Assembly (NCBI GenBank): GCA_963698165.1
Contig: CAVOPT010000023.1
Location: forward strand, 25,704 to 89,703
Reading direction: 5' to 3'
Origin: an uncultured delta proteobacterium
GTDB lineage: Bacteria > Desulfobacterota > Syntrophobacteria > Syntrophobacterales > Syntrophobacteraceae
DNA length: 64,000 bases
Shown: positions 45,769-52,715 of the stretch, one piece after another
Numbering within the stretch: the stretch's first letter is position 1
Layout: every line of letters starts with the position of its first letter
The notes under the pieces: model-generated
Told to the model about the DNA's origin: nothing
What the model saw: the letters and a program-made list of their open reading frames with translations, nothing else
The model's database searches: none
Translations under genes and position numbers: made by a program

Positions 45769-45785
45769 AATATCGGGTCAAAAAA

Positions 45786-45956
45786 GAATTGGTTGGGCAC
45801 CAGGTACCGCAAGGTTTAAAAGGGAATCCCGTGTGAATCGGGAATGGTCCCGCCGCTGTAAACGGGGACGAAATCCGGAGCAGCCACTGTTTTGCGGGAG
45901 CGAAACGGGAAGGTTCGGAGAGTAGATTGATCCGTGAGTCAGAAGACCTGCCTGGG
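45786..45956 (+). promoter_or_regulatory. cobalamin (B12) riboswitch
   Basis: The conserved core reads AAAAGGGAAtcccGtGTGAATCggg...GGtCCCGCCGCTGTAAacGGGGACGAA...GCCACTG...GGGAAGG...AGTCAGAAGACCTGCC. This includes the B12 box (GCCACTG) and the terminal CAGAAGACCTGCC element, all in plus-strand orientation. Confidence 0.88.
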
Positions 45957-46026
45957 GGTCAATGGGCAATCGGCACGTGGAGATGCGCGATGCCCGGGTG
46001 AAGGATCAAGTGAACCAGGGTGCAAT

Positions 46027-46596: not shown

Positions 46597-48302
46597 TCAT
46601 GACGGCAGACGGTCTTGCTCGCCTGGGAGAAGAACAGGCGGAGAAGTGGTCTTCTGCAGTTGCATGATCTCCTGGCAGCACTGATTCTTGAACGTGTAAT
46701 CCAACCCATTGATTGAAATCAGGTTCTCATCGCTCGTGAAGGCCTGAGTCGGGTAGTCCCGAATGAGTCTGCCACGGTGCATCACCAGTGTTCGCGCACA
46801 GGTCATGGCGATGATGTCCATGTCGTGGCTGATGACGATCCTGGTGACATCGAGCTGCTTGAGGATCTCACACAGGATCTCCTCGCTTTGGGGGTCCAGG
46901 TTCGCCGTGGGCTCATCGAGGATAAGAACTCGGGGCCTCATGCTCAGGATGGATGCCAGGGCGAGCCGTTTGCGTTCACCGGCGCTGAGATGATGAGGGA
47001 TTCTCTCGTCGAAACCCTCCATGCGAACCATTTTCAGGGCTTCCTGAACCCGGGCATCGACCTCGTCGGCGGGAAGGCCCAGCTGCCTGGGGCCGAAGGC
47101 CACCTCTTCCCTGCAGGAAGGGCAGAAAAGCTGGTCGGCCGGGTCCTGGAAAACCAGCCCACAATGTCTCCAGAGCTCTTTTCTGACTTTCCCGAAAACA
47201 GCCATGCCGTCGAATGAGATATTCTCCTTCCCCCTTGAGCAGGCCGCAAAGGCAGGACACGAGGGTTGATTTACCCGCCCCGTTCTCCCCTGTGATGGCC
47301 AACGATTCGCCCATTTGAATGGCCAGGCTGAATCTCACGGATACCCCATGTCCCGTCGGGATACCGAAACGAGAAGTCCTGCAGCCTTATCAGCGCATCT
47401 GTCGGCAGTTCCTTGTTCGTTCCTGGATGGTGCCTTTGAACTGCATCAGATAAGGCGGAGATGTGGTGATGATGAGGATGCCCTGCCGCATCGTCAGCGT
47501 CCACTTGGCAGCAGCTCAATCGGAATGTGAAGTCGAGACCATGTTCGCGCAGGTACGCCTTTTGAGAGACGAGGTCCTTCATGGAGAAATCGTGATGGAT
47601 TTTCCCTTTCTCCAGGACAACCGCCCTGGTGCAGAGGTCATAGAGGAAGAAGAGATCGTGACTGATGCAAATGAGTGTTCCAGGGAATTCCCGAAGCATC
47701 TCGAGGAAGAACTTCTCCTGCTTTGGGTCGAGATAAGCGGTTGGTTCATCGAGAATGAGGACTTCGGGATTCATGGCGAGGGTCGTCGCAAAGGCCGCCC
47801 GCTTTTTCTGTCCATAGCTCAAGTGATGGGGGGCCTTGTATCGGAGGCCTTCGAGACCAACCTTTTGGAGAGCCACCGAGACCCGGCTTTCAATCTCCAA
47901 CCTGTCCAATCCCTGATTCAGGGGTCCGAAGGCGATGTCTTCATCGAGTGTGTTGCAAAAAAGCTGGTCATCAGGGTCCTGAAAGAGCATCCCGATTCTC
48001 AGCCTTGCAGCGGCAAGGTTTGCGCCTTCCAAAGGCTCCCCTTTGTAGAGAATCTTGCCGCCGCGCGGTCGGTACAAACCGTTCAGATGCTTTGCAAGAG
48101 TGGTTTTCCCCGCCCCGTTCTGGCCGACGAGGGCGATTTTGTCTCCGGTGTGGATTTCGAGATCGATGCCATCCAGGGCCCGCCGGCCATCAGCGTAGTG
48201 AAAGACCAGGGATCGGATGCCGAACAGAAGTTCAGACTTCTCCCTGAAGGCGCCAAATGCTCTCTCATCGTCGCGTCCGACCGTGTCGGCTCCCTTGCTC
48301 AA
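46597..48302 (-). pseudogene. fused double ABC ATPase of ECF/CbiO-NikO type, interrupted by two frameshifts
   Basis: Domain 1 is intact (47271..48302: GQNGAGKTT, LSYGQKKR, LILDEPTAYLD). Domain 2 is split over two further frames. 46976..47338 holds VRFSLAIQMGESLAITGENGAGKST, and 46597..47205 holds LVFQDPADQLF, LSAGERKR, LILDEPTANLD and ISHD. The frame switches sit near the C-runs at 47344-47347 and 47230-47234. Confidence 0.75.
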
Positions 48303-48460
48303 GGCCTCACTCCATTCCAGGCGGCTGCTTCACAACAGAATCCCCTGTCGACACACGTGTTCATTTAACCAGTCTGAACGCCGAATTTCAACCTCGCATA
48401 AAGAGGCGGGTTTCGCGGTAGGACTACCAGGGAGGAGGAGTGTCCTTCTTCCAAGATGCA

Positions 48461-48913
48461 CTAAAAATTGAGGGTCACTCCGGCAAGCCAGGTGATGTCA
48501 TCTTCGGTTTCCGTGATTCCTCCCTTCACACCCAGATCGAAAGTCAGGTTGTCCGTAACGGCGAAGACAAGACCGCCGAGTATAAACGCAGCGGGGGTAT
48601 CGGACAGTTTGTCCGAGTTTCTCTCGGCTCCAATGTTGGCCACTGCGGTCAACCAGTTGCACACCTTCACCGTGGACGCCAGCGAGACATTCCACAGGTT
48701 GTTTCGTTCGTCGATGTCGTTCTCATTGCGCAGATAGCCTGCATTGAAATGAAAGGCAAAGCGCTCAAGCTCCTTGGAGGCAATGAAGTAGAACTGCGGG
48801 GACACCCTCCCAGAACCCAGTCCCTTGTCCTCATCCCCGGACGGAAACGTCACCCCGGGCTTGACAGCGAGCCCCCATCCGTCGCACTCCCTAAGCGTGC
48901 TGCAGGTAAACAC
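48461..48913 (-). pseudogene. C-terminal half of an outer-membrane beta-barrel protein (MetA/phenol-degradation-like family), apparently truncated
   Basis: PGVTFPSGDEDKGLGSG, alternating beta-strand pattern and a terminal ...WLAGVTLNF (aromatic C-terminus typical of OMPs). There is no signal peptide or N-terminal strands in any frame upstream, which suggests a 5' truncation. Confidence 0.45.
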
Positions 48914-48983
48914 GATTCTTCCAGCCTGTCAAGCCGAATTCATTGCCATTCCATGGGCACCTGAGGGTGGAAGCCTTTTCGAA

Positions 48984-49013
48984 TTGACATGCTGAAGCAC
49001 TTGTTCTTATGAT
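48984..49013 (+). promoter_or_regulatory. near-consensus sigma70 promoter upstream of the Nik/Cbi transporter operon
   Basis: TTGACA (48984-48989), 18-nt spacer, TATGAT (49008-49013). It would start a leader of about 200 nt before the ATG at 49227. Confidence 0.5.
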
Positions 49014-49127
49014 GGCAGCAATTGGGAAGTTGAAGCTTCCTGCCCTCTTTTTCGGGTGCACCTGAAGGTGCGGCGACAAACGCCTTCGCTCAACGGCTCC
49101 ACGGAATCAACCATTCTGGTCACGAAG

Positions 49128-49151
49128 GCCGGCATCGATGCCGGCTTTTTT
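49128..49151 (+). terminator. intrinsic-terminator-like hairpin inside the transporter leader (attenuator candidate)
   Basis: The perfect 18-nt palindrome gccggcatcgatgccggc (49128-49145) is followed by TTTTTT (49146-49151), 75 nt upstream of the first transporter gene. Confidence 0.6.
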
Positions 49152-49226
49152 GTTCATTCGGTTGGCTGGGATGGGCTGTTTTCGAGGTTTGGGGGGAAAC
49201 CCAATTCCAAAAAAAGGAGGATTAGG

Positions 49227-50030
49227 ATGCTTCGATTGCGCTTTCTGTGCGTTGCTTGTGCTGTCGCTCTCTTTGCACTGGTTCCTGTCGCCATGGCGCA
49301 TTTTGGCGGCATCACCCCGTCCGACGACATAGTCACCCAGGAGGATCCCAAGACGATCACTCTGGAAGTGAAATTCATCCATCCCATGGAGATGCATTAC
49401 ATGGAGATGGAGAAACCCAAGCGCTTTGGAGTGCTCCATAAGGGCCAGAAGGAAGATCTTCTCAACACGTTGCAAAGCACCCAGGGAAAAGCCCCGGACC
49501 AGGATCGCCAGTTCACCTTCTGGAAATCCACCTATCCCATCAAGAAGCCCGGCGACTACACTTTTTTCCTGGAACCCACCCCTTACTGGGAGCCCGCCGA
49601 GGGCAAGTTCATCGTCCATTACACCAAGGTCTGCGTGAACGCCCTCGGTCTCGAGGAAGGCTGGGACAAGCCCGTCGGGTTCGAGACGGAGATTATCCCC
49701 TTGACGCGTCCCTACGGTTTGTGGACGGGGAATGTGTTCACCGGAAAAGTCCTCCTCAAGGGAAAGCCTGTTCCTAATGCCGAGGTCGAAATCGAGTACC
49801 TCAACGAAGCCCCGGAAAACAAGAGCGTGGTCAAGGCGCCGGCCGATCCCTTCGTCACCCAGGTGGTCAAGGCCGACGGCAACGGCGTCTTCACCTATGC
49901 GATGCCCAGGGCCGGCTGGTGGGGGTTCGCCGCCCTGAGCGACGCCCCGTGGAAACTCAAAAAAGACGGCAAGCCCAAAGACGTGGAAATTGGGGCCTTG
50001 TACTGGGTCCACACCGTAGACATGAAATAG
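49227..50030 (+). CDS. periplasmic DUF4198 protein (NikK-like accessory component of Ni/Co ECF transporters)
   Basis: ATG with AAGGAGG upstream. Signal peptide MLRLRFLCVACAVALFALVPVAMAH. GDYTFFLEPTPYWEP, PYGLWTGNVFTGKVLLKGKPVPNAEVEIEY and DGNGVFTY fit DUF4198. Confidence 0.75.
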   Translation: MLRLRFLCVACAVALFALVPVAMAHFGGITPSDDIVTQEDPKTITLEVKFIHPMEMHYMEMEKPKRFGVLHKGQKEDLLNTLQSTQGKAPDQDRQFTFWKSTYPIKKPGDYTFFLEPTPYWEPAEGKFIVHYTKVCVNALGLEEGWDKPVGFETEIIPLTRPYGLWTGNVFTGKVLLKGKPVPNAEVEIEYLNEAPENKSVVKAPADPFVTQVVKADGNGVFTYAMPRAGWWGFAALSDAPWKLKKDGKPKDVEIGALYWVHTVDMK

Positions 50031-50157
50031 GAAAGCCGAGGTGGATGTGGCCCGATTTCACCGGGAACATGTTTTGTTTTCTAGAGGTCATTGACAGGGG
50101 TGAACTGGATTCGCTCCTGTCGCAACAACTGATGCATTCCAGCGTGAGGAGAAAACC

Positions 50158-50493
50158 ATGGGCTGTCGACTTCTGCAAGTTGGTATTCTCGCTGTCCTGG
50201 TGACCTTTGCCCTGTTCCAAGCTCCTGCGCACGGACACAAGGTCAACATCTTTGCCTATGCGGAAAACGGCAAGATCTTCACGGAAAGCTATTTTCCCGA
50301 TGGGAAGCCTGTCGAAGACGGAGTGATCGAGGTTTTGGACAGCCAGAGCCAGAAGGTCGCAGAGGGGAAGACCGACAAGGAGGGCAAGTTCTCGTTGCCC
50401 ATTCCCAAGAAGGACGACCTCACCATCGTCATCAACGCGTCCATGGGCCACAAGAACACCTTTCTTCTGAAAAAGAGTGAACTGGGAGAATAG
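50158..50493 (+). CDS. small secreted protein with HGH motif after the signal peptide (possible metal-binding accessory component)
   Basis: GAGGAG upstream. Signal peptide ...LFQAPAHGHKVNIF. A beta-rich ~85-aa mature part (EVLDSQSQKVAEGKTDKEGKFSLPI) resembles a carboxypeptidase-regulatory/transthyretin-like fold. The function is contextual. Confidence 0.5.
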   Translation: MGCRLLQVGILAVLVTFALFQAPAHGHKVNIFAYAENGKIFTESYFPDGKPVEDGVIEVLDSQSQKVAEGKTDKEGKFSLPIPKKDDLTIVINASMGHKNTFLLKKSELGE

Positions 50494-50496
50494 GTC

Positions 50497-50895
50497 ATGT
50501 TGCAGCGACTCAGGCCAGGCATTCATTGCCTGCTCTTACTGCTTGCGTTGATGGCAATCTCGGTCATCGGTTTCCAGAGCGGGGTGGCTTGGGCGCAAGC
50601 CACTCCCGGCGAGATTGCCTCCCCGGAGGGGGCATCCCAAAGAGCAGCCACAAGCAAACCGGTCGATTGCGGGGAGCTGGCAGGACTTATCCAGCAGGAG
50701 AGAACTGCGGTTTCCAGGGAAATGGGACAGATCAAGCGGGAAATCGCTGCCTTGCGGGATGACCTCTCCAAGCCGGGGTTGAAGGAGATCTTTGCCGGGA
50801 TTGGCTATATTTTGGGCTTGGCCGGCGTTGGCCTCTATGCTCACTGTCGCAGGAATAAGATCCTGGAGCCAGGAGCCGGTTCACGGGAGGGTTGA
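50497..50895 (+). CDS. membrane-anchored protein (possible NikL-like component)
   Basis: N-terminal hydrophobic segment CLLLLLALMAISVIGF, a central helical region and the C-terminal TM IFAGIGYILGLAGVGLYA. It starts 4 nt after the previous gene. Confidence 0.4.
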   Translation: MLQRLRPGIHCLLLLLALMAISVIGFQSGVAWAQATPGEIASPEGASQRAATSKPVDCGELAGLIQQERTAVSREMGQIKREIAALRDDLSKPGLKEIFAGIGYILGLAGVGLYAHCRRNKILEPGAGSREG

Positions 50896-50937
50896 TCCCT
50901 GTCCCTTTTTCCATTGGGAAAAAGAAAGAAATCATCC

Positions 50938-51561
50938 ATGCATATCTCTGACGGCGTTCTCCCCACCACGGTTGCAGTCGTCGGATTTGCGGTGAGCCTT
51001 GCGATTGTCGCCTGGACCGCCCGCAAAGTCGACCCGGAAGATCTTCCCAAGATCGCGGTGGTGACTTCCGCCTTTTTTGTGGCGTCCCTCATTCACGTCC
51101 CTATCGGCCCCACCAGCGTGCATCTGCTCATTCCAGGCCTGGTGGGCATTCTTCTTGGCAGTGGCGCGTTCATCTCCATTGGACTTGGAATTATACTCCA
51201 AAGCCTGCTTTTCCAGTTCGGCGGCATCACTGCCATAGGAGCCAACGCGTGCATGATGGGGGTTCCGGCCCTCGTGTCGGGGTGGCTCTTTCGCGCCATG
51301 AAAGGGAAGTCATTGACGCGCCATGTCCTGGCCGGCGCCTTGGCAGGTGGCCTGGGGGTTTTTATGGCAACTTTGATTCTGGCGCTTTTCCTGTTGAGTG
51401 GCGGGGAGGATTTTTTCGGAGTGGCCAAAATCGCCATCTACGCTCATCTGCCTGTCTTCATCATTGAAAGTGCCGTCTCCGCTTTCGTGGTTTCGTTCCT
51501 TTTCAAAGTGAAGCCGGACATGCTGGGGCGGGAAACCGCTTCAGTCAGCCCTTTTTGCTAG
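50938..51561 (+). CDS. ECF transporter substrate-capture component, CbiM/NikM family
   Basis: MHISDGVLP... has the invariant N-terminal M-H metal-binding end of CbiM/NikM. It is multi-TM and about 207 aa. The HISDG variant looks closer to the NikM pattern (MHIPDG) than to CbiM (MHI.EG), judged from memory. Confidence 0.88.
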   Translation: MHISDGVLPTTVAVVGFAVSLAIVAWTARKVDPEDLPKIAVVTSAFFVASLIHVPIGPTSVHLLIPGLVGILLGSGAFISIGLGIILQSLLFQFGGITAIGANACMMGVPALVSGWLFRAMKGKSLTRHVLAGALAGGLGVFMATLILALFLLSGGEDFFGVAKIAIYAHLPVFIIESAVSAFVVSFLFKVKPDMLGRETASVSPFC

Positions 51562-51567
51562 CAGGCC

Positions 51568-52530
51568 ATGGACTCTTCCGTTCACGTCGTGGTGGTTCCT
51601 CTCAGAGTGTTCGGGTACACTTTGGGGGGAGTTATTCTGTTGATCCTCCTCCCCTTCCTTTTGAGGCGGGTTGTTCGCTTCCGCCAAAGCTCCGAAAAGT
51701 CTGATGAGGAAAGGAACTGGGGCATCCCAAGCATCGATGCTCAGGCCCACCTCCATTCTCCATTCCACAGCTGGGACCCCCGAATCAAGATCGTCTCCCT
51801 CCTGTTCTTCATCTTCTGCACGGCCGCCTTGAGTCATCTCTTTTGGGCCTGCTTTGCGCTTTTCGCCGCAATCTTATCCATTCTTGTGGCACGGATTCCT
51901 CTTCGTTACCCACTGAGGCGGCTTGCGGCCATGGGGGCCTTCCTCGGGATGTTTCTGGTGGTGATGCCTCTGACCGTGAATGCCAGGAGTGGGGACTTGC
52001 TGGTGCGCTTCGAGCATGTCTCCTTCCTCTCCTTCAATGGAAGGGGGTTCATGCTCGCTCTGCTCATCTGTCTGAAAGCCTCGGCCATCGCCTTACTGGT
52101 TGAGCCCCTTCTTTCCACCTCTCCCTTTCCTGTGACCATTCAGGCACTTGCCCGCTTGAGGGTTCCCCAGATGGTCTGCCAGATGATCCTCCTCGCCCAC
52201 CGGTACATCTTTGTCTTCCAGCACGAAACCAGCCGCATGAACAAGGGAATGCAAATGAGAGGCTTTAGGAGGCGGACCGACATGGAAACTCTGCACAACA
52301 TTGGAAATTTCCTGGGAATGTTACTCGTGCGAAGCTTCGAGAGGACCCAGCGAGTTTACGAAGCGATGATCGCCCGGGGATACACGGGGCAGTTGTCTGT
52401 CACTCATGAGTTCCGGGCCATGAAAGGAGATTGGTGGAAGGGGCTTTTCTGGCTCAGTGCGGGGATTGGCCTCGTTCTCGTGGACCGTTTCTGGGTGCCG
52501 ACAGCGTTGATGGCGGTCTTCGAGTTTTAG
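51568..52530 (+). CDS. ECF transporter transmembrane (T) component, CbiQ/NikQ family, with an N-terminal ~70-aa extension containing an extra TM segment
   Basis: DPRIKIVSLLFFIF..., ALARLRVPQMVCQMILLAHRYIFVF and ...AMIARGY are CbiQ-type motifs. The N-terminal GGVILLILLPFLL segment is extra. Confidence 0.8.
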   Translation: MDSSVHVVVVPLRVFGYTLGGVILLILLPFLLRRVVRFRQSSEKSDEERNWGIPSIDAQAHLHSPFHSWDPRIKIVSLLFFIFCTAALSHLFWACFALFAAILSILVARIPLRYPLRRLAAMGAFLGMFLVVMPLTVNARSGDLLVRFEHVSFLSFNGRGFMLALLICLKASAIALLVEPLLSTSPFPVTIQALARLRVPQMVCQMILLAHRYIFVFQHETSRMNKGMQMRGFRRRTDMETLHNIGNFLGMLLVRSFERTQRVYEAMIARGYTGQLSVTHEFRAMKGDWWKGLFWLSAGIGLVLVDRFWVPTALMAVFEF

Positions 52531-52715
52531 TCTTCGATCAATACGATCCGATGTTGAACCAGGTTCATCTCCTTGATGCGCCCCTTGATCCATCGCTGGT
52601 CCCCGTAGATGTCCCGGATATAGATGCTTTCTCCCTCAGGTCTGACGATATCCACGCTTTCCATGATGAGCTCCTCCCTATCCTCTTTCATCAGGTATGC
52701 ATTTGCTTCGCACAT
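52527..52715 (-). CDS. CooT-family small protein (putative nickel-binding, formerly annotated RNA-binding)
   Basis: 62 aa, MCEANAYLMKEDREELIMESVDIVRPEGESIYIRDIYGDQRWIKGRIKEMNLVQHRIVLIED. The MCE.N.Y start with Cys2 and the overall pattern match the CooT family. AAAGGAG upstream. The long ORF-track version (to 52883) is not needed. Confidence 0.7.
   Translation of the reverse strand: MCEANAYLMKEDREELIMESVDIVRPEGESIYIRDIYGDQRWIKGRIKEMNLVQHRIVLIED

Follow-up and report, generated by a model that had tools for sequence, protein, structure and literature searches.

Nickel import needs tight control, which in textbooks is exerted by the DNA-binding repressor NikR. The nickel-dependent proteomes of the sulfate-reducing and syntrophic anaerobes concerned here are large. 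In the lambda N/boxB system, a short 5′-proximal hairpin with a purine-rich, GAA-containing pentaloop recruits an antitermination protein; the polymerase is made processively terminator-resistant, and overlap with a particular terminator is not needed. NikR is a ribbon-helix-helix protein repressing nik operons when nickel is sufficient (PMC2667541, PMC11672702). The NiCo (czcD) riboswitch (RF02683) forms a four-way junction, binds the metal directly and turns exporters on (PMC11672702). A 2024 review names NikR as the uptake regulator and NiCo, on efflux genes, as the sole nickel-linked riboswitch (PMC11672702). Targets of the ANTAR proteins EutV, NasR and AmiR are dual-hairpin leaders, whose hexaloops have A as first and G as fourth nucleotide and whose last hairpin overlaps a terminator (Ramesh et al. 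2012, PMC3369931).

The leader described here lies in a 64,000-nt stretch of DNA from an uncultured delta proteobacterium (the whole stretch is called the window, and positions refer to it). It carried GAA-loop hairpins, one of them competing with the terminator, and preceded nickel-uptake genes in a genome without NikR. A literature search for a described nickel-uptake leader RNA found none. The family to which the leader belongs is a probable on/off switch for nickel uptake in anaerobes lacking NikR.

Layout of the locus and its conservation in a sister species

As shown in Table 1, a promoter, a leader of several hairpins and an intrinsic terminator were located in front of a transporter operon, whose genes follow the NikKMLQO naming, with NikK and NikL as the nickel-specific components (PMC2667541). 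When 47500–50500 was searched for sigma-70-like sites, the one listed was detected alone, so that no other promoter is visible from which the transporter operon could be transcribed. Although the entire promoter stretch was only 63% identical in the sister species (G001), both hexamers were unchanged there. In most members of the leader family the TTGAC of the −35 box lay at a constant distance from the first hairpin, P1, and P1 was preceded by CAAT or CAAC in most curated leaders.

Table 1. Positions of the promoter, leader elements and neighbouring genes in the window.
Feature	Position	Strand	Remarks
Sigma-70-type promoter, TTGACA-N18-TATGAT	48984–49013	+	TTGACA 48984–48989; TATGAT 49008–49013; 11 of 12 consensus matches
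Predicted transcript start	~49019–49021	+	
CAAU (family: CAAY)	49019–49022	+	transcript 5′ extremity, directly before P1
P1, GGGAAGU-UGAA-GCUUCC(U)	49024–49041	+	−7.4 kcal/mol; N-G-A-A loop 49031–49034
Weak pyrimidine-rich hairpin, CCC-UCUUUUUC-GGG	49043–49056	+	−2.5 kcal/mol; kept in the sister species
P2, second GAA-loop hairpin, GCACC-UGAA-GGUGC	49058–49071	+	−6.4 kcal/mol
Variable linker	49072–49116	+	takes in hairpin GGCG-ACAAA-CGCC (49072–49084)
Near-invariant 13/14-mer, UGGUCACGAAGGCC	49117–49130	+	
Mini-hairpin P3, GGUC-ACGAA-GGCC	49118–49130	+	−3.1 kcal/mol
Intrinsic terminator	49124–49151	+	11-pair stem 49124–49149; UCGA loop; U6 49146–49151; −16.8 kcal/mol
Spacer with ribosome-binding site	49152–49226	+	AGGAGG 49215–49220
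DUF4198/NikK-like gene	49227–50030	+	Pfam; ATG at 49227, 75 nt past the T run
Small NikL-like secreted protein gene	50158–50493	+	Pfam
132-aa membrane protein gene	50497–50895	+	Pfam search of operon
CbiM/NikM gene	50914–51561	+	Pfam
CbiQ/NikQ gene	51568–52530	+	Pfam
Whole controlled operon	49227–52530	+	
CooT gene	52530–52715	−	62 aa; Cys2; convergent with operon end

The initial annotation had proposed for this region a near-consensus promoter, a leader with three local hairpins, and an 18-nt palindrome plus T6 placed 75 nt before the first transporter gene. The promoter was confirmed, with 11 of 12 matches to the consensus. The perfect palindrome GCCGGCATCGATGCCGGC (49128–49145) and the T6 following it (49146–49151) were found at exactly the proposed coordinates, and the distance to the DUF4198 start codon was as claimed. 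All three hairpins are present in the sequence, but the third (49072–49084) is not conserved, as the aligned sequence of the sister species is unable to form it.

The whole leader folded better than 200 of 200 shuffled sequences (z = −2.9). The 3′ arm of P3 (49127–49130) is common to the 5′ arm of the terminator, and P3 and the terminator are mutually exclusive. The stem-loop with its U tract, the stem of which covaries across the family, is predicted to terminate transcription in the intrinsic (rho-independent) manner.

Third codon positions of the DUF4198 gene, which were 66% identical between the window and the sister species, served as a neutral yardstick. Identity was 92.5% for P1 with its neighbouring hairpin, 93% for P2 and 88% for the 13-mer with the terminator; at 49073–49104, comprising most of the third hairpin, it was 66%, the neutral level. 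In the flanks of P2 the sister species showed two U-to-C changes, GUGC becoming GCGC in both arms, and a slightly shifted stem also fitted. Judged by this yardstick, P1, P2 and the 3′ module are under purifying selection and the linker is neutral, and the conservation of the leader elements is, by the same comparison, beyond chance. The spacer before the first gene was also conserved (85% identity against the neutral 66%); no promoter-like site was seen in it (49152–49226). It contained a small hairpin, UUGGG-GGGAAA-CCCAA (~49188–49203), and may house an additional element acting on translation or stability.

On the minus strand, the upstream side of the leader (46597–48913) carried genes for a truncated Phenol_MetA_deg barrel and an ABC ATPase. 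The barrel lacked its N-terminal half, only profile positions 88–242 being covered, and the ATPase, a fused double ABC ATPase with the His-rich linker HPHHHH, appeared to be broken across three frames. In another genome (G022), an intact 595-aa ATPase and a 334-aa barrel, divergently arranged, adjoined a leader of the same type. A canonical cobalamin riboswitch (45785–45969, plus strand, 116 bits) was detected 3 kb upstream of the nickel leader. Cobalamin sensing is therefore handled there by a standard B12 riboswitch, and the nickel leader is something else.

Distribution and anatomy of the leader family

The Rfam scan that the initial annotation had proposed as a check was run on the window and 28 homologous loci at permissive and gathering thresholds. 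The leader matched no family, Cobalamin, NiCo and T-box included: the cut-offs were E ≤ 10 for 48000–50000, E ≤ 1 for eight homologous loci and the gathering thresholds for 20 more. The NiCo model RF02683, in particular, was without a match at the first two of these settings. The Cobalamin model RF00174 was likewise silent on the leader yet detected the riboswitch upstream with its high score, in agreement with the earlier view that the leader is not a cobalamin element.

A DNA search of 60 related genomes revealed one full-length homologue, in the sister species, and many short matches to the segment just before or inside the terminator. On inspection, the short matches were not random terminators; each stood at the end of a leader built in the same way. 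The names of proteins returned for relatives put the organism among the Syntrophobacteraceae. The pattern TGGTCAYGAAGGCCRGC, with at most one mismatch allowed, was found in 56 of the order's 96 genomes, as against about 13 hits for the reversed control; genomes within one order are non-independent. A covariance model of the 3′ module, which is narrow and certainly misses diverged copies, matched in 51 of the 96. Among about 147 other sampled genomes of the phylum, two further real copies were detected, one before a DUF4198 gene and one before a P-loop ATPase. No further real copy was found in the window's own genome, where the window copy stands alone. By these searches the family comprises about 60 copies across the Syntrophobacterales-like order and a few elsewhere in the phylum, and the leader is, as judged by alignment and Rfam comparison, a conserved RNA family absent from RNA libraries.

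Family members shared a fixed order of elements: TTGACA promoter, CAAY, P1, linker, UGGUCAYGAAGGCC and terminator. Forty-five leaders were curated, their P1 hairpins by eye, so that selection bias is possible. Their P1 stems had 4–8 pairs, with a mean of 6.3 contiguous pairs, and comprised 43 distinct stems with frequent G·U pairs. When the 3′ halves of P1 were swapped among sequences, 3.95 pairs were obtained, with a maximum of 4.47 in 200 trials. P1 covaries in this comparison. Its loops were of one kind: TGAA in 12 leaders, AGAA in five, ATGAA in four, AAGAA and CGAA in three each, and similar loops in the others. After P1, hairpins of the type CCYC...GRGG were seen, by eye only, at a similar place in several DUF4198 leaders.

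The linker varied from 31 to 196 nt. Of 46 leaders, 18 had extra GAA-loop hairpins in the linker, 19 hairpins in all where shuffling predicted 4.3; P2 of the window is one such hairpin. UGGUCAYGAAGGCC was near-invariant, its last bases AAGGCC forming the outer part of the terminator 5′ arm. In the alignment of terminators 98.2% of cells paired; the inner pairs covaried and the outer AAGGCC was fixed. At one inner position GC was found 27 times, AU 23 times and GU 10 times.

The segment GGUC-AYGAA-GGCC can close as the mini-hairpin P3, with a loop of the same type as P1. In some leaders the two loops were identical (CAAGAAG in L100 and L116; CAUGAAG in L118 and L106), and in L113 CCU-AAGAA-AGG occurred twice, followed by GGUC-AAGAA-GGCC. 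In the family alignment 99.2% of P3 cells could pair; changes were one-sided only (five U-to-C, two C-to-U), and no double-sided covariation was found, because the P3 sequence hardly varies. P3 is thus compatible with the data, not proven. Three f3 leaders apparently consisted of the 13-mer and the terminator only.

These results bear on other proposals of the initial annotation. Conservation upstream of related operons was found, the layout standing mostly before nickel-uptake genes. The region might instead have been leftover coding sequence of the truncated outer membrane protein gene; this was refuted, as the RNA structure is kept where that gene lies elsewhere. The suggested attenuation switch of an undescribed type gained support from the lack of an Rfam match, the same layout in about 60 leaders and the need for read-through described below.

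Two side observations were made at individual copies. About 400 nt from the leaders L003 and L005, on the plus strand, lay a second promoter-to-terminator RNA with a related 3′ end, AGCCACGAAGGCGAGCAG...CUGCCCUUCGUGGCUUUUUU; it probably belongs to the leader family as a diverged copy. In L051, from the same stretch of G022 as L003, this second RNA faced an [FeFe] hydrogenase gene. Directly behind the terminator of another leader (L055:1153–2952, minus strand; G100:C9) lay a group II intron (Rfam D1–D4, Intron_gpII). Some group II introns home to intrinsic terminators, and this insertion fits.

Genes behind the leaders and candidate readers

Genes behind the leaders were mostly nickel-related, and the motif associates with nickel genes. 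The first gene encoded DUF4198/NikK in about 25 copies and CbiM/NikM in six. Other first genes encoded NikL-like proteins, TonB-dependent receptors, FecCD permeases, an OprB-type porin, [FeFe] hydrogenases (two leaders), a CooC-like P-loop ATPase, a ferredoxin-type protein, a response regulator and a single-copy IS630-like protein; the regulon also included an HdrC-like protein. The P-loop ATPase behind one of the copies outside the order is read as CooC-like, its Pfam matches being only generic. For the IS630-like gene, the response regulator and the HdrC-like protein a nickel link is not obvious. Nickel is the most likely signal, as against cobalt or another, as far as gene content alone can tell.

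Both hydrogenase cases (L101, G011:C1:~1052450, minus strand; L052, G016:C78) concerned genes of the large subunit, and in G011 a CooT gene lay 600 nt away on the opposite strand. G011, a complete genome, also had a leader copy before the IS630-like gene. A leader before an [FeFe] hydrogenase suggests a nickel-sparing switch between hydrogenase types. The IS630-like gene (HTH_32 and DDE_3 domains, ~370 aa) was present in single copy behind the leader in several genera (L003:316–1431, L005:309–1424 and L007:95–1204, minus strand; L056:1758–2921, plus strand; L041 and L084). Its protein was vertically inherited, with 77% identity within a genus and ~53% between genera, and the gene has the appearance of a transposase domesticated within the nickel regulon.

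NikR_C was not found in 94 of the 96 genomes of the order, including the window's 99.4%-complete genome; positive controls were detected. One of the two NikR-bearing genomes (G014) gave no motif match.

Two protein types were rejected as readers. The IS630-like protein is absent from the window's genome. For the ANTAR domain PF03861 there were matches in 24 of the order's 96 genomes, but none in that of the window or in genera g1, g9, g10 and g14, which carry the motif.

The protein encoded convergently to the operon was identified as CooT by Pfam (1.8e-25) and matched the solved CooT structure 6FAN (5e-12), with Cys2 kept. CooT is a 7-kDa dimer. One Ni is bound per dimer, the Kd being 9 nM, and the role of the protein is unsettled (PMC6006190). 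Of 60 motif hits, 13 had a CooT gene within 8 kb. In 38 genomes this gene adjoined a gene for DUF3842, and the pair was often a few kb from leader copies; examples of the pair are G041:C3:385217–385802, G092:C21:511307–511904 and G064:C51:49294–50226. Of the 60 motif hits, 15 had DUF3842 itself within 10 kb, with a rough chance expectation below one, and in the sister species it was 2 kb from the leader; in the window's genome it followed parB on another contig. Both proteins were near-universal in the order (CooT in 90 and DUF3842 in 93 of the 96 genomes), which makes their phyletic profiles within it uninformative, and occurred also in genomes where the narrow 3′ model finds no motif; DUF3842 was found in none of 14 control genomes.

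DUF3842 was 65–86% identical across aligned homologues, and 59% in a second copy beside a leader. Its AlphaFold model (pLDDT 79) gave generic Rossmann-like matches only (TM ≤ 0.5), and no RNA-binding signature was seen in that model. No sequence relative of DUF3842 was found in the PDB, and among the titles and abstracts searched none naming it was found. CooT is a possible nickel-sensing partner, and the clustering of CooT and DUF3842 near leaders may serve only as a lead. We regard it as quite unlikely that CooT, alone or with DUF3842, binds the GAA-loop hairpins and controls termination, nickel being sensed by the small protein. If true, RNA-binding regulators would gain their first nickel-responsive member, working for a metal by a logic like that of TRAP or HutP and replacing NikR in many anaerobes, and the leader family makes such a role of CooT-type proteins testable.

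Read-through, rival explanations and known systems

All inspected copies had the same orientation as the gene behind. Between the U tract and the start codon there were only 22–40 nt in L098, L114, L117 and L119, leaving no room for a second promoter; downstream expression therefore needs read-through. Complementarity of upstream segments to the 13-mer or to the arm of the terminator did not exceed chance (5.78 nt observed against 5.90 in shuffled sequences), and therefore no RNA-encoded anti-terminator is recognised.

Several elements within the leader were considered and rejected. Pairing of GCCUUCG (49083–89 in the window) as an anti-terminator is lost in the sister species. A 17-codon leader-peptide frame starting inside the −10 box has no ribosome-binding site, and its frame and end differ in the sister species (alignment by eye). 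The AUG inside the 13-mer is ACG, AAG or AGG in many copies and so does not serve as a start codon. P1 does not pair with the 13-mer, since P1 is variable and the 13-mer constant.

With moderate confidence, we read the leader as a factor-dependent attenuator responding to nickel, with ANTAR-like logic but not an ANTAR member. Transcription from the promoter would yield an mRNA whose first ~130 nt act in cis as attenuator of a NikK-NikL-NikM-NikQ-type importer. By default the terminator would form, and transcription would end 75 nt before the first gene. Read-through would need a trans-acting factor, most likely an RNA-binding protein, recognising the look-alike N-G-A-A loops of P1, P2 and the mini-hairpin; once closed, the mini-hairpin would keep GGCC out of the terminator stem. 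The signal would most likely be nickel availability, with read-through when nickel is scarce. We infer the reader (a factor rather than a ligand, and a protein), the direction of regulation and the nickel signal from the pattern of conservation and the genes behind the leaders. Conserved letters were found only in the repeated loops and the 13-mer, the linker was free, and minimal leaders occurred; a trans-acting reader is therefore favoured.

In a true riboswitch, the leader itself would bind Ni2+, Co2+ or a small metabolite in a pocket made of the GAA loops and the 13-mer, and the balance between P3 and terminator would shift. A promoter, leader and terminator before transporters is its typical layout, the 13-mer is extremely conserved, the search for a protein reader found none, and metal-sensing riboswitches such as NiCo exist (PMC11672702). 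Against this, the family has no conserved multi-helix junction, no aptamer helix competing with the terminator and no Rfam match; its linker is neutral and of widely differing length, and the minimal leaders apparently dispense with all but 13-mer and terminator. The conserved pieces repeat one small hairpin type, a hallmark of a multimeric reader, and a mini-hairpin of −3 kcal/mol cannot outcompete a terminator of −17 kcal/mol without strong outside help. We consider a riboswitch unlikely. The initial annotation had left the choice between a riboswitch and a protein-dependent attenuator; the factor-dependent option fits better and the riboswitch less so, given the small look-alike loops, the free middle and the lack of an RNA anti-terminator.

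If the leader were a small RNA of ~130 nt acting independently in trans, with the 13-mer as its seed or as an Hfq/ProQ-binding module, this would account for the strong promoter and the (predicted) efficient terminator, for the conserved single-stranded segment beside that terminator, and for copies before unrelated genes, such as the IS630-like gene; moreover, the terminated leader must accumulate somewhat. Yet inspected copies were co-oriented with and close to the next gene, with spacers down to 22–40 nt, the window offers no second promoter for the operon, and the complement of the 13-mer was not enriched at translation starts in the window's genome, where its nine matches were the motif itself and ordinary coding or unannotated sequence. 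A small RNA as the main function is very unlikely; a cis role and an additional trans role of the leader are not mutually exclusive. We give least credence of all to the absence of a regulated switch, that is, to a stabilising 5′ hairpin with a leaky terminator setting constant low expression, or to a DNA operator (the P1 repeat or the TCATGA core) bound by a repressor. It is true that 5′ hairpins stabilise mRNAs and that P1 is an inverted repeat just past the −10 box, a frequent repressor site. However, pairing in P1 is kept despite the 43 distinct stems, its G·U pairs only make sense in RNA, and the 13-mer is strand-specific and tied to the terminator; stability alone leaves the strict conservation of loop letters and 13-mer unexplained.

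The occurrence of one leader before nik transporters, TonB receptors and nickel-free [FeFe] hydrogenases points to a termination-controlled nickel-sparing regulon, and the 13-mer, the defined loops and the defined terminator give a precise handle for finding the sensor. Of the known systems, the factor-dependent attenuator proposed here resembles the ANTAR targets in its look-alike small hairpins, its variable linker and the sharing of bases between the last hairpin and an intrinsic terminator; in the window, P1, P2 and P3 are present, P3 exclusive with the terminator. Recognition of loop letters, termination by default and read-through caused by a bound dimeric reader are further likenesses that we presume. 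The loops differ, being mostly 4–5 nt of the type N-G-A-A (G, then AA; UGAA, UGAA and ACGAA in the window) and not A1/G4 hexaloops; in addition, the genome of the window has no PF03861 protein, the first hairpin here stands at the very 5′ end, and the regulon concerns nickel uptake and not the use of nitrogen or ethanolamine.

With lambda N/boxB the leader shares a 5′-proximal hairpin with a GAA-containing loop, but its conserved 13-mer is fused to the terminator itself, and we know of no N-like protein in these genomes. Like NiCo, the family is found in anaerobes in front of genes for metal transport and concerns nickel or cobalt, but it has no four-way junction and precedes importers. With NikR it apparently shares the same job, the shutting off of nickel import, TonB receptors and related genes; whereas NikR acts on DNA, here an RNA leader takes the corresponding position before nik genes.
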